The notes beneath the pieces were generated by a model that worked only from the letters and a program-made list of their open reading frames with translations, searched no databases and had not been told where the DNA came from. From the NCBI RefSeq assembly GCF_050920415.1, contig NZ_CP169309.1: DNA of 64,000 nt. One strand, given 5' to 3'. This document shows, in pieces, positions 4,853-7,213 of the stretch. Source of the DNA: Escherichia coli. GTDB lineage: Bacteria; Pseudomonadota; Gammaproteobacteria; Enterobacterales; Enterobacteriaceae. The translations under genes were made by a program, and so were the position numbers. Positions within the stretch are counted from its first letter, which is position 1. Each line of letters starts with the position of its first letter.

Positions 4853-6277
4853 ATGGATGGCATGGGATGGATGATTATTTTGGTACTTCCCTTTCTTTGG
4901 ATGGGCTATGGACTGGCGTTGTTAATCATAACGGGGTGCGCTTTTGAATCTAAGAGGATTCGTCGCATTCTGCTATGGGGTGTTGCGCCCCAGTTTATTA
5001 TTCTTTGTATTACGACCTTATTGCTTTATTGGATTAACTCTCGGTTAATTTATGTTTTTGTCTTTTTTCAGCCAGTTTTATGCATCACTACGGCAATTTT
5101 TTTGTTTGCTGGTAAAAAAACACAATATTCCAGATTGCTGTTTACTCTGTCTCATGTGATTTTTCTTGCTGGAGTTTTATATCAGGGGCATAGGGAAAAT
5201 CTGCAACACATAATTAATAGCGACTGGAAGGAATATAAAATAACGCGTTTATTTGAGCAAGTGCAGGACAATGGAGCGCATGCGCTGAATAACGATGTAA
5301 CTTGTTCAGAATTAATGCAACTACTCACCCTGGCAGCGGAACGTGATGACGTCAAAGAAGAGACGTTACGTACTCTTATTGCAAAGAGAGTATCGCCATT
5401 TCTGACAATGTCAGATAACTGTACGGGTGAGGATTCAGTAGAGATTTATTCTGTAGATACTACACCTTTTATGGCGGCTATTCAGAATCATAATATACAT
5501 TCTGTTCGTTTTTTTAGTCAATTGCTTATGGGAAACTCACCAAAAGCAAAAAATAATCGTGACATTGTGCGCCGGGCAAACCCTTTGATCGAAGTGTATA
5601 AATATAGTCATGGTTCAAAAAAACAACGTAACTCAGGGTTAGAAATAAGTAAGCAATTAATGGCTATTATGCCAGAACTATTAACAGATGCCGTCTGGCG
5701 TGCCGTGCTCAATGTATATGATGCCGATGCAGCACGATGGTTCTGGCGTAAGCAACCACCAGAAAATCGGTTGTATCGCTTAAAGGCTATGGCATTAATA
5801 CCACAAACAGATGCGCTGTTGGCAGAGATTCGACATACTCCAGAGGTACTGAATATCTCGTCTGAGGGGGACCTGAATGAAGAGGAGTTTCTCCATTTCT
5901 TAATTTATGGAGGAGATACCGCTGTAATACATGCACTGGTTGAAAAAGGAATAGTTAACTGGCAGCACCTTATGAACATTGAGGGGTTTGATAAGGACCC
6001 CTTAATATGGTCTATTTCAAAACTGGGAGAAAACGACAATGACCGGGAGGTTTTGGCATTAATTATTCATGATATTAATGCGCAAAACGCACTGCCGGAG
6101 GAACGCATTGCCAAATATTTAACGTGGACGGGAGCAATGGGCGAGATTTTTTTAAAGGCGGGCGTACATTGTGATAAGTTATATGCGGCAATTGAGTCCG
6201 ACAAAAAGCGAAATAATGGCATGTATAGTCAAAACGCCAGGGAAGAAGTGGATCGCGTATGTACGCCCACAAAATAG
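4853..6277 (+). CDS. Hypothetical membrane-anchored protein (N-terminal multi-TM region, C-terminal region with ankyrin-like repeats); accessory
   Basis: 474-aa ORF, strongly AT-rich; hydrophobic N-terminal ~110 aa; C-terminal region paralogous to the downstream ORF; not in K-12 ftsP-ygiQ interval as I recall it; start codon uncertain. Confidence 0.5.
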   Translation: MDGMGWMIILVLPFLWMGYGLALLIITGCAFESKRIRRILLWGVAPQFIILCITTLLLYWINSRLIYVFVFFQPVLCITTAIFLFAGKKTQYSRLLFTLSHVIFLAGVLYQGHRENLQHIINSDWKEYKITRLFEQVQDNGAHALNNDVTCSELMQLLTLAAERDDVKEETLRTLIAKRVSPFLTMSDNCTGEDSVEIYSVDTTPFMAAIQNHNIHSVRFFSQLLMGNSPKAKNNRDIVRRANPLIEVYKYSHGSKKQRNSGLEISKQLMAIMPELLTDAVWRAVLNVYDADAARWFWRKQPPENRLYRLKAMALIPQTDALLAEIRHTPEVLNISSEGDLNEEEFLHFLIYGGDTAVIHALVEKGIVNWQHLMNIEGFDKDPLIWSISKLGENDNDREVLALIIHDINAQNALPEERIAKYLTWTGAMGEIFLKAGVHCDKLYAAIESDKKRNNGMYSQNAREEVDRVCTPTK

Positions 6278-6520
6278 GAGCAGTTTGGGGCGGTTAAGGG
6301 ATAAAAAATAAATGCCTTTCGCTATCTGTCAGGGCGAATCTCACCATTTGCTATACCTTCCATTGGCGATGAACAGTATTCTACACGCACTTTTTTTACG
6401 ATTGCGTTGAAGCATTACAACGCCCGCGCCATCCGCGCGTTTAGCCGCTTTCTGCAAGGAAATTCCTCAAAAGCGTAGGAATATCGCGCGATTGTTCATC
6501 AAAAAAATCCACTGCAGCAG

Positions 6521-7213
6521 ATGTACCGGGGAATAAGTTTGCCAATTCGTTTTAGTGAAGAAGAGATCGCCCGCCACATTGTTGCCGCTCGCGAGATAAG
6601 CCTCACCTTGCTGCCCCTGATGCCAGAATTATTAAACGAAGAGGCGTATGAAAATGTCATTGATGCTAATGACAGCGCAACGCTGAAGGCTTTTTGGCAG
6701 ATCCAGCTGCCGCCCACGCCGGTTTTACGCCTGGAAACGATGTCGGTAATTCCCATGACAGCGGCACTGGTTCAACAGGTGAGGGAGTCACCAAAGCGGC
6801 TTGAACTGGAAGATAAAAGTGGCAGGACAGTACTAACTTACATCGTGCGCTTTGGGAATATTGCCGCAGTACAGGCACTGATTGACGCTAATCTGATCGA
6901 CTGGCAACGGCTCCGCCAATCGACAGGAAGGTCAACACCATTATTACTGGCGATCTGGCGACAAAAATACGACGATGATTATGTAATCTTCCCATTGATT
7001 TTAAAGGACATGCTGGCAAAAAATGCGCCACCCTCAGCAGAGGAAATAATGAACTGCATTAAGGATGGTATGACCGCAGATGATTTTTTATCTGCCGGAA
7101 TGAGCAACACGCAATTCTGTTCTGCGATTGAACAAAGCCTCCAGGCGAAAACGTCAGTATTACCGGCGAATCGATTACGCCATCTGCAATCCTCGCGGTG
7201 TGCAAAGCTGTAA
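6521..7213 (+). CDS. Hypothetical soluble protein, paralog of the C-terminal domain of the upstream ORF (ankyrin-like)
   Basis: 230-aa ORF; alignable to ORF 4853-6277 (MPELL...FW...PP..RL...IP.T.AL...R block); start uncertain. Confidence 0.45.
   Translation: MYRGISLPIRFSEEEIARHIVAAREISLTLLPLMPELLNEEAYENVIDANDSATLKAFWQIQLPPTPVLRLETMSVIPMTAALVQQVRESPKRLELEDKSGRTVLTYIVRFGNIAAVQALIDANLIDWQRLRQSTGRSTPLLLAIWRQKYDDDYVIFPLILKDMLAKNAPPSAEEIMNCIKDGMTADDFLSAGMSNTQFCSAIEQSLQAKTSVLPANRLRHLQSSRCAKL

Follow-up and report, generated by a model that had tools for sequence, protein, structure and literature searches.

The stretch of Escherichia coli DNA analyzed here (64,000 nucleotides of contig NZ_CP169309.1 from RefSeq assembly GCF_050920415.1, hereafter termed the window) carries an accessory segment between the genes ftsP and ygiQ. 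Two open reading frames (ORFs) reside within this segment: ORF-A, which encodes a membrane protein with a large predicted repeat domain, and ORF-B, which is the longest reading frame remaining in the remnant of a paralogous gene (Table 1). A previous description of the window prepared from the sequence alone (the sequence-only reading) placed ORFs of 474 and 230 amino acids at this junction, as confirmed by the ORF list, and stated that ygiQ directly follows ftsP in strain K-12. Indeed, the ftsP stop codon of K-12 is followed by only 38 bp, a strong terminator-like hairpin, in place of positions 4803 to ~7256, and the ygiQ upstream region comes next. The segment had also been described as visibly lower in GC content. 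This is true of ORF-A (GC 0.41; GC at third codon positions, or GC3, 0.38) when compared with the flanking ftsP and ygiQ genes (GC 0.55-0.56; GC3 0.59-0.62), but ORF-B is only mildly low (GC 0.48; GC3 0.51). The RefSeq strain MFDS1022581 is 100% identical to the window across positions 4700-7400, and its annotation lists ORF-A as a 'membrane protein' (WP_000348902.1) and ORF-B as a 224-amino-acid product (WP_001122589.1) with a start at position 6539.

Table 1. Coordinates of features at and around the ftsP/ygiQ junction of the window.
Feature	Position	Strand	Description and basis
ftsP	3390..4802		Gene upstream of both ORFs
Accessory segment	4803..7256	+	2454 bp, from the first base past the ftsP stop codon to just before the common ygiQ upstream sequence TTTCGATTTCTC; comparison with the K-12 junction
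Hairpin	4817..4836	+	GCCCCAC-6 nt-GTGGGGC; 7-bp stem with no T-run after it; inside the 50-bp spacer between ftsP and ORF-A
Ribosome-binding site	4842-4846	+	AAGGA; downstream of the hairpin, ahead of ORF-A
ORF-A	4853..6277	+	474 amino acids; ORF list
ORF-A four-helix transmembrane module (predicted)	4853..5197	+	Codons 1-115; helices ~3-30, 34-60, 64-86 and 92-114; AlphaFold2 model, family alignment and loop charges
ORF-A ankyrin-like repeat domain (predicted)	5198..6277	+	Codons 116-474 plus stop; all-helical, predicted periplasmic; Cys440/Cys470 pair
Remainder of the A-B intergenic spacer	6278..6309	+	Extends to the deletion junction 6309/6310, inside AAAT/AAA microhomology; alignment with intact alleles
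Paralog B remnant	6310..7213	+	Codons ~170-469 of the intact 469-amino-acid gene
In-frame TAG	6476-6478	+	Interrupts the B remnant 45 nt ahead of the ORF-B ATG; all other alleles read have CAG here
ORF-B	6521..7213	+	230 amino acids; ORF list; longest ORF remaining in the B remnant
ygiQ	7329..9548		Gene downstream of both ORFs

The sequence-only reading proposed that the segment encodes a membrane protein accompanied by a soluble paralog. The paralogy itself is well founded, as evident by a BLASTP match between ORF-A residues 264-461 and ORF-B residues 25-217 (29% identity, E = 5e-27). With tblastn, ORF-A residues 176-461 match window positions 6326-7171, such that the homology begins 195 nt upstream of the ORF-B ATG. 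The reason for this offset is provided by Escherichia whittamii, which carries two full-length genes at the same junction. Their products of 483 and 469 amino acids, hereafter A and B, both have an N-terminus with multiple transmembrane (TM) helices and align end to end with ~27% identity. Relative to E. whittamii and to E. coli strains GF4-3, PT62 and LD91-1, the window carries a 519-bp deletion that begins 32 nt past the ORF-A stop codon. This deletion takes the ribosome-binding site of B, its start codon and ~169 codons, and with them every one of the four TM helices; the length of coding sequence lost is not divisible by three. The remnant is further interrupted by the in-frame stop codon listed in Table 1, and the ATG assigned to ORF-B corresponds to an internal methionine of intact B at about residue 240. 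For the same fragment, the NCBI Prokaryotic Genome Annotation Pipeline (PGAP) uses a TTG start at 6539 instead of the ATG at 6521.

Because of the deletion, the in-frame TAG, the homology upstream of the ATG and the internal position of that ATG, the supposed soluble paralog is the pseudogene tail of a 469-amino-acid, four-TM paralog. If translated at all, the product of ORF-B would be devoid of a membrane-targeting segment, and a separate annotation of this fragment as an 'ankyrin repeat domain-containing protein' is not warranted. The 519-bp deletion is common to the window and strains 2013C-4282 and WL297. Strain 2013C-4282 retains a C at the site of the TAG, and therefore the change that creates the stop codon is specific to the lineage of the window. 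Two short database matches (P0026 and P0028) were considered as natural soluble versions of the protein and set aside as probable fragments, since they start at the same internal MPELL sequence as the window remnant.

A survey of 5426 complete E. coli genomes identified 13 that carry the segment, all at the ftsP/ygiQ junction, which agrees with the earlier proposal that the locus is accessory rather than core. The full 3-kb version is present in 10 of the 13, and both ORFs are full-length in nine of those. Intact copies of both A and B are carried by GF4-3, PT62/LP5-1, the AH04/CX/CT group and LD91-1, for which PGAP only chose a later start. Considering E. whittamii and the nine E. coli genomes together, the full-length pairs at this site encode A proteins of 474-483 amino acids and B proteins of 469 amino acids. 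The tenth genome, EC2641 (L010, positions 4021-4718), has an IS1B insertion sequence at the A/B boundary, which slightly changes the 3′ end of ORF-A (478 amino acids), and its B gene is broken into ORFs of 333 and 152 amino acids. This inactivation of B is independent of the deletion in the window, and the IS1 element is a secondary insertion. ORF-A is intact in 13 of 13 carriers. These carriers hold at least four FtsP protein alleles, two of which are shared with the non-carriers K-12 and SF-088.

The junction, which corresponds to a variable region designated 'GR 21 ygiQ..ftsP' (PMC12928451), exists in three states among the 5426 genomes. Apart from the 13 carriers of the segment, most are empty like K-12 and have its 38-bp hairpin, and 1214 carry an island of ~8 kb that encodes a tripartite ATP-independent periplasmic (TRAP) transporter and a dehydrogenase. 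The ankyrin segment has none of the marks expected for a mobile island. No integrase, transposase or recombinase ORF is present at the segment according to the ORF list, and no tRNA was found in positions 1-14000, as the sequence-only reading had noted for integrase, transposase and tRNA genes. No direct repeats were found flanking the segment, which likewise does not occupy varied sites within the species. A tblastn search yielded 0 matches among 72,556 records from plasmids and 50,697 from phages, and no Rfam family was detected over positions 4500-7600.

The short spacer between ftsP and ORF-A offers some indication of how ORF-A may be expressed. A promoter and terminator scan revealed no promoter-like or terminator-like site between the two genes, and the number of sites was no higher than in shuffled sequence. 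Because such sites are missing from the spacer, read-through from ftsP appears to be the likeliest source of transcription, and ORF-A is probably expressed in this manner. The spacer hairpin has a folding energy of −15.7 kcal/mol and a weak z-score of −1.65. Its stem is kept with altered bases (GCCCTAC/GTAGGGT) in a contig termed L005 (Logan SRR33454298), and is kept in a longer form, again with altered bases, in E. whittamii. This hairpin could be an element for mRNA processing or stability, or could act as a weak attenuator.

The proposal that ORF-A has a multi-TM N-terminus is upheld by an AlphaFold2 model computed from a 30-sequence alignment (mean predicted local distance difference test score, or pLDDT, 81.6; predicted template modeling score, or pTM, 0.72) and by the family alignment, both of which place four helices in this region. 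Neither a lipobox nor a signal peptide is present in ORF-A, which has the four TM helices there instead. The remaining ~350 residues are modeled as short paired helices with pLDDT values mostly between 85 and 95, arranged as the stacked helix-turn-helix repeats of ~33 residues that typify the ankyrin fold. Sequence profiles are less decisive on this point. The Ank_2 profile of Pfam matches the B remnant with an E-value of 2.6e-4, ORF-A scores only 1.7-9, and among 30 family members none is matched at E<=1e-3 and three are matched by Ank profiles at E<=0.1. Thus, the earlier description of these proteins as ankyrin-like is sound with regard to the fold of the soluble part, but it finds only marginal profile matches, and the repeat domain is not a clear member of an Ank family at the sequence level.

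The combination of four TM helices and an ankyrin-like domain appears to define a family of its own. No Pfam family covers these proteins in scans of the 30 members, and a search of the family profile against Protein Data Bank (PDB) sequences gave only chance-level matches, such as GABA-receptor TM segments with E ~0.007. When the model was compared by Foldseek with the AFDB50 set of the AlphaFold Database (AFDB), the whole architecture was recovered only in uncharacterized proteins of Enterobacteriaceae (E 1e-54 to 1e-7, TM-score up to 0.96). These include E. coli A0A1Q6B411, Salmonella salamae A0A5Y2RVQ2, Salmonella Typhi Q8Z3P6/Q8Z3P5, and entries from Phytobacter, Superficieibacter and Klebsiella grimontii. 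Residues conserved across the family include Pro46-Gln47 in TM2, His101 in TM4 (in most members), Trp370, Gly437 and two cysteines near the C-terminus, and the repeat starts carry the conserved motifs SPF, TPF..A....N, NPL, MPELL and PPE. ORF-A exhibits all family traits, namely the four TM helices, the Pro-Gln pair, the motifs and the cysteine pair, and ORF-B exhibits only those of the C-terminal half.

Charge distribution provides a basis for predicting how these proteins are oriented. Summed over 30 members, the number of Lys and Arg residues versus Asp and Glu residues is 7/20 for the N-terminal tail, 73/6 for loop 1, 7/18 for loop 2 and 70/0 for loop 3. Because loops 1 and 3 are positively charged, the positive-inside rule predicts that they are cytoplasmic and that the N-terminus and everything past TM4 are periplasmic (N-out/C-out). 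TM4 of ORF-A is weakly hydrophobic (<1.6 in a 19-residue Kyte-Doolittle window), and the same helix is clearly hydrophobic in other members. The C-terminal cysteine pair, whose two residues lie 24-35 positions apart, occurs in 30 of 30 members and spans the final predicted hairpin, formed by helices 440-454 and 459-470. In 14 members the domain contains no other cysteine, and 24 of the 30 have an even number of cysteines. We infer that Cys440 and Cys470 form a structural disulfide, as would be expected for a domain located in an oxidizing compartment.

Rates of substitution indicate that both A and intact B are real protein-coding genes that are far less constrained than their neighbors. The ratio of nonsynonymous to synonymous divergence (dN/dS) is 0.19-0.29 for A, over synonymous divergence (dS) of up to 0.55, and 0.16-0.34 for B, and it differs little between the TM and repeat regions. 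For the flanking ftsP and ygiQ genes, the ratio is 0.006-0.008. ORF-A is under purifying selection, and B is a pseudogene fragment in the window.

Relatives of these proteins are difficult to find. A word-indexed homolog search returned Escherichia proteins only, and the family became visible only when 1.84 billion representative proteins were searched exhaustively with a profile, which produced 65 matches. About 16 of the 65 are full-length relatives (466-480 amino acids, with one of 587), all of which are from Enterobacterales. The remaining matches are long multi-repeat proteins that align only to profile positions ~333-395, in up to 15 stretches each. A locus search with a narrower family alignment yielded three loci. 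Our literature searches for the family found no paper, and in public databases its members bear the labels 'hypothetical', 'membrane protein' or 'ankyrin repeat domain-containing protein'.

Despite sharing only ~20-37% identity across genera, the proteins are encoded at the same post-ftsP position in at least five genera: Escherichia, Salmonella, Pseudocitrobacter and two further Enterobacteriaceae. In Escherichia, in the Enterobacteriaceae metagenome-assembled genome L028 and in the Logan contig L031, the genes are located 33-55 bp past the ftsP stop codon on the same strand. L028 carries a gene for 463 amino acids and a truncated paralog of 327 amino acids, and L031 carries a gene for 471 amino acids. 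Salmonella enterica subsp. salamae has one copy between ftsP and ygiQ, with a spacer of 575 bp after ftsP. In Pseudocitrobacter corydidari (L014), genes for 587 and 472 amino acids are accompanied by a 123-amino-acid ORF without similarity to the family, all located after an HtpX/LemA gene pair. This pair, which codes for an M48 membrane protease of the HtpX type and a member of the LemA family on the minus strand (L014 positions 6428-7900), separates ftsP from the family genes in this genus only. The 587-amino-acid protein of Pseudocitrobacter (P0013/P0093; L014 positions 8178-9941) has two tandem four-TM modules and one repeat domain, and each module carries the Pro-Gln and Cys-His motifs, which hints that TM modules may work in pairs. 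Identity of ftsP to that of the window is 71-95% across the hosts that carry relatives after ftsP, including 71-82% for S. salamae, Pseudocitrobacter, L028 and L031, and 71-76% for the two further Enterobacteriaceae. More distant relatives are solo genes at unrelated loci in Atlantibacter, Enterobacter cancerogenus, S. enterica and Erwinia.

Several alleles within or near Escherichia offer glimpses of how this locus may have changed over time. The E. albertii type strain (NBRC 107761, L026) carries an intact B gene, the TRAP island and a remnant ORF of 141 amino acids (L026 positions 7926-8351), which shares 53% identity with the N-terminus of the P0010 type from Pseudocitrobacter rather than with type A; a third allele type thus once occupied the Escherichia locus. 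Escherichia sp. MOD1-EC7003 has only B, in that the hairpin and the first bases of A remain and the rest of A is deleted. With B broken in the window and in EC2641, and A deleted in MOD1-EC7003 and absent in E. albertii, the two genes have been lost reciprocally. Family genes also appear to be split elsewhere, as in EC2641, in the shortened second copy of L028 and, judging by a fold match and neighboring accession numbers, in S. Typhi (Q8Z3P6/Q8Z3P5). Contig L005 carries A, a frameshifted B (pieces of 397 and 72 amino acids) and the TRAP island. Its A and ftsP genes are equally divergent from those of Escherichia (82% identity for both), its B shares 93% identity with B of E. whittamii, and its TRAP permease shares 92% with the permease of E. 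coli SF-088. Such a mosaic implies that a recombination breakpoint lies between A and B, and that exchange between genera has occurred. Within E. coli, A and ftsP keep pace with each other in synonymous divergence, which between the window and GF4-3 is 0.096 for A and 0.125 for ftsP.

The sequence-only reading regarded the segment as inserted. However, divergent relatives hold the same position after ftsP across genera and no plasmid or phage copies were found, and therefore a long-standing presence, marked by repeated loss and some recombination, is a better fit than insertion in this strain. Because E. albertii and L005 carry ankyrin genes and the TRAP island together, the order ftsP-A-B-TRAP-ygiQ may be ancestral for Escherichia. 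The simplest reading of these comparisons is that of an ancient chromosomal locus that would have experienced tandem duplication, fast divergence, reciprocal loss, occasional recombinational replacement and, in most E. coli, full loss.

A second small variable spot is located just downstream, in the interval between ygiQ and yqhH. In the window, this interval contains a small LPP-like gene on the minus strand (~9587-9868; WP_001037461.1, 'LPP leucine zipper domain-containing protein'). The gene is absent in LD91-1 and EC2641, where yqhH comes directly after ygiQ, and a different hypothetical gene occupies the interval in GF4-3, PT62 and AH04.

We favor an explanation for this locus that unites a degraded tandem pair, a periplasmic ankyrin-like membrane protein and a protective binding role, and when taken as a whole we judge its chances of being correct to be evenly balanced. 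The degraded pair, with A intact and B reduced to a fragment, is established by the comparisons above, the membrane topology is predicted, and the role is a guess. Each protein would reside in the inner membrane by means of four TM helices in an N-out/C-out arrangement, and would project its ~350-residue repeat domain, stabilized near the C-terminus by a disulfide, into the periplasm. In this form the protein could serve as a membrane-tethered module for binding other proteins. Rather than act solely as an anchor, the TM module might associate with another copy of itself or with a partner in the membrane, as suggested by the conserved Pro-Gln and His residues in the TM helices and by the presence of two TM modules in P0013. 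The most likely, though speculative, option is that the binding module sequesters or blocks an incoming or envelope-acting protein and thereby has an immunity-like or protective role. This guess derives from the precedent of the periplasmic ankyrin-repeat immunity protein Tli (see below), the tandem paralogs, the occurrence of several divergent types at one locus, the patchy retention, the decay and the exchange between genera. Such features resemble those of genes engaged in conflict: distribution is patchy, paralogs are in tandem, at least three divergent types exist (A, B and the P0010-like remnant), loss is reciprocal and B has been exchanged.

A number of observations weigh against a protective role of this kind. 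In ~14 genomic contexts, no toxin, secretion, type VI secretion system (T6SS), contact-dependent inhibition (CDI), Rhs, colicin, phage or defense gene lies beside a family member. The only neighbors of possible note are a barstar-like gene at the non-ftsP locus of E. cancerogenus and the HtpX/LemA genes of Pseudocitrobacter, and neither recurs. Searches of both ORFs with PADLOC (PADLOC-DB 2.0), PHROGs and NCBIfam returned nothing usable, with 0 PADLOC families at E<=1. Proteins of ~470 amino acids with a conserved polar TM motif are atypical among known immunity proteins, the dN/dS values are below 1 throughout and so give no direct sign of an arms race, and the family is no more similar to Tli than to other ankyrin domains. 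Moreover, both the topology and the disulfide rest on sequence rules. A bolder form of the same idea is that the genes after ftsP constitute a polymorphic immunity or exclusion cassette, expressed on the ftsP transcript, in which types A, B, P0010-like and P0020-like each neutralize a different envelope-acting toxin, bacteriocin or phage protein introduced by competitors, possibly as dimers formed through their TM modules. We consider this version unlikely, although if true it would represent a new class of immunity or exclusion determinants.

The main rival to the protective role is an accessory envelope or divisome function tied to FtsP, in which the gene is co-transcribed with ftsP and the periplasmic domain tunes cell division under stress by binding FtsP or a different protein of the septum or peptidoglycan. 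FtsP is a periplasmic protein, and thus would share a compartment with the predicted repeat domain. The close, same-strand placement of the genes after ftsP in Escherichia, L028 and L031 is also consistent with such a link, as is a spacer in which no promoter-like site occurs and the hairpin lacks a T-run, at the place where K-12 has a strong terminator-like hairpin. However, dN/dS values of 0.2-0.3 for A and B are unexpected for a dedicated partner when FtsP itself has values of 0.006-0.008, and the segment is absent from 5413 of the 5426 E. coli genomes. Members at unrelated loci in four other taxa, the long spacer in S. salamae and the two intervening genes in Pseudocitrobacter further loosen the association, and we therefore regard an FtsP-linked role as rather improbable. 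It is also conceivable that the locus is simply on its way out, such that ORF-A, though still open, no longer serves a purpose in this lineage and A and B alike are decaying toward loss. The death of B in the window, the loss of the locus from nearly all E. coli, the split family genes of S. Typhi, EC2641 and L028, and the weak constraint relative to neighboring genes would all be explained in this way. Yet A has stayed intact in every carrier on backgrounds with at least four FtsP alleles, its dN/dS over dS values up to 0.55 reflects sustained purifying selection, and the Pro-Gln, His and Cys motifs are conserved across genera. Loss of function already under way thus strikes us as decidedly unlikely.

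Two further alternatives concern the orientation of the protein and the origin of the pair. Most characterized ankyrin domains act in the cytoplasm and TM4 of ORF-A is only weakly hydrophobic, which would suit a cytoplasmic ankyrin-like domain that recruits a cytoplasmic partner to the membrane. The charges of loops 1 and 3 (73 and 70 Lys plus Arg versus 6 and 0 Asp plus Glu), the clear hydrophobicity of TM4 in other members, and a conserved cysteine pair with even cysteine counts, which suits an oxidizing compartment, make this opposite topology quite improbable. Least probable of all, in our judgment, is the proposal of the sequence-only reading that the segment is a horizontally acquired islet encoding a defense or effector pair composed of a membrane protein and a soluble paralogous partner. 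The low GC content of ORF-A, the rarity of the segment in E. coli, the variability of a junction that houses the TRAP island in 1214 genomes and the exchange of B between genera in L005 are in keeping with acquisition. The idea of a partner is largely refuted, however, since the supposed soluble partner is what a deletion left behind and contains a premature stop codon. Also contrary to this proposal are the lack of any match to a defense family, the lack of mobility genes, tRNAs, repeats and plasmid or phage copies noted above, and the occupation of the same locus by divergent relatives across genera.

For the window, these findings mean that one intact accessory membrane gene lies beside a pseudogene fragment. 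If the predicted topology is right, then throughout the family a conserved membrane module of four helices would hold an ankyrin-type domain in the periplasm of enterobacteria. The evolutionary behavior of the locus hints at a part in interactions with other organisms or in envelope stress.

Several known ankyrin proteins of bacteria serve as useful points of comparison. The protein Tli is an ankyrin-repeat immunity lipoprotein that protects against the Enterobacter cloacae T6SS phospholipase Tle (PDB 7ubz; bioRxiv 10.1101/2023.03.28.534661). Tli is a small lipoprotein whose gene lies beside the toxin gene tle, whereas the proteins described here are ~470 amino acids in length, carry conserved polar residues in their four TM helices, and are related to Tli by fold but not by sequence. 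In the contexts read, the 8-10 kb around family members contain no gene for a lipase, an effector or a T6SS component. With no adjacent effector and no lipoprotein signal, ORF-A does not fit the Tli type of immunity protein. The ankyrin effectors of Legionella and Coxiella (e.g. AnkB, PDB 5k34) are substrates of type IV secretion systems (T4SSs) that act in eukaryotic cells, in contrast to the integral membrane proteins of this family, which have no T4SS context. Matches to the corresponding NCBIfam models are far below their cut-offs (AnkX, 10.2 bits versus 1400; AnkG, 10.8 versus 500). ORF-A is neither a T4SS ankyrin effector, nor part of a mobile island, nor a known defense system. A different protein also named AnkB, from Pseudomonas aeruginosa, is reportedly a periplasmic ankyrin-like protein encoded by a katB-ankB operon. 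It is likewise an ankyrin-like protein of the bacterial envelope, and its gene directly follows that of the protein which it supports. Unlike ORF-A, its partner gene codes for a catalase, and it is much smaller and lacks the four-TM module; homology between the two was not detected. The entries from uncharacterized Enterobacteriaceae proteins in AFDB share the whole architecture and are true family members. ORF-A would be a bacterial envelope ankyrin-like protein that is set apart by its four-TM module and by the peculiar history of its locus.

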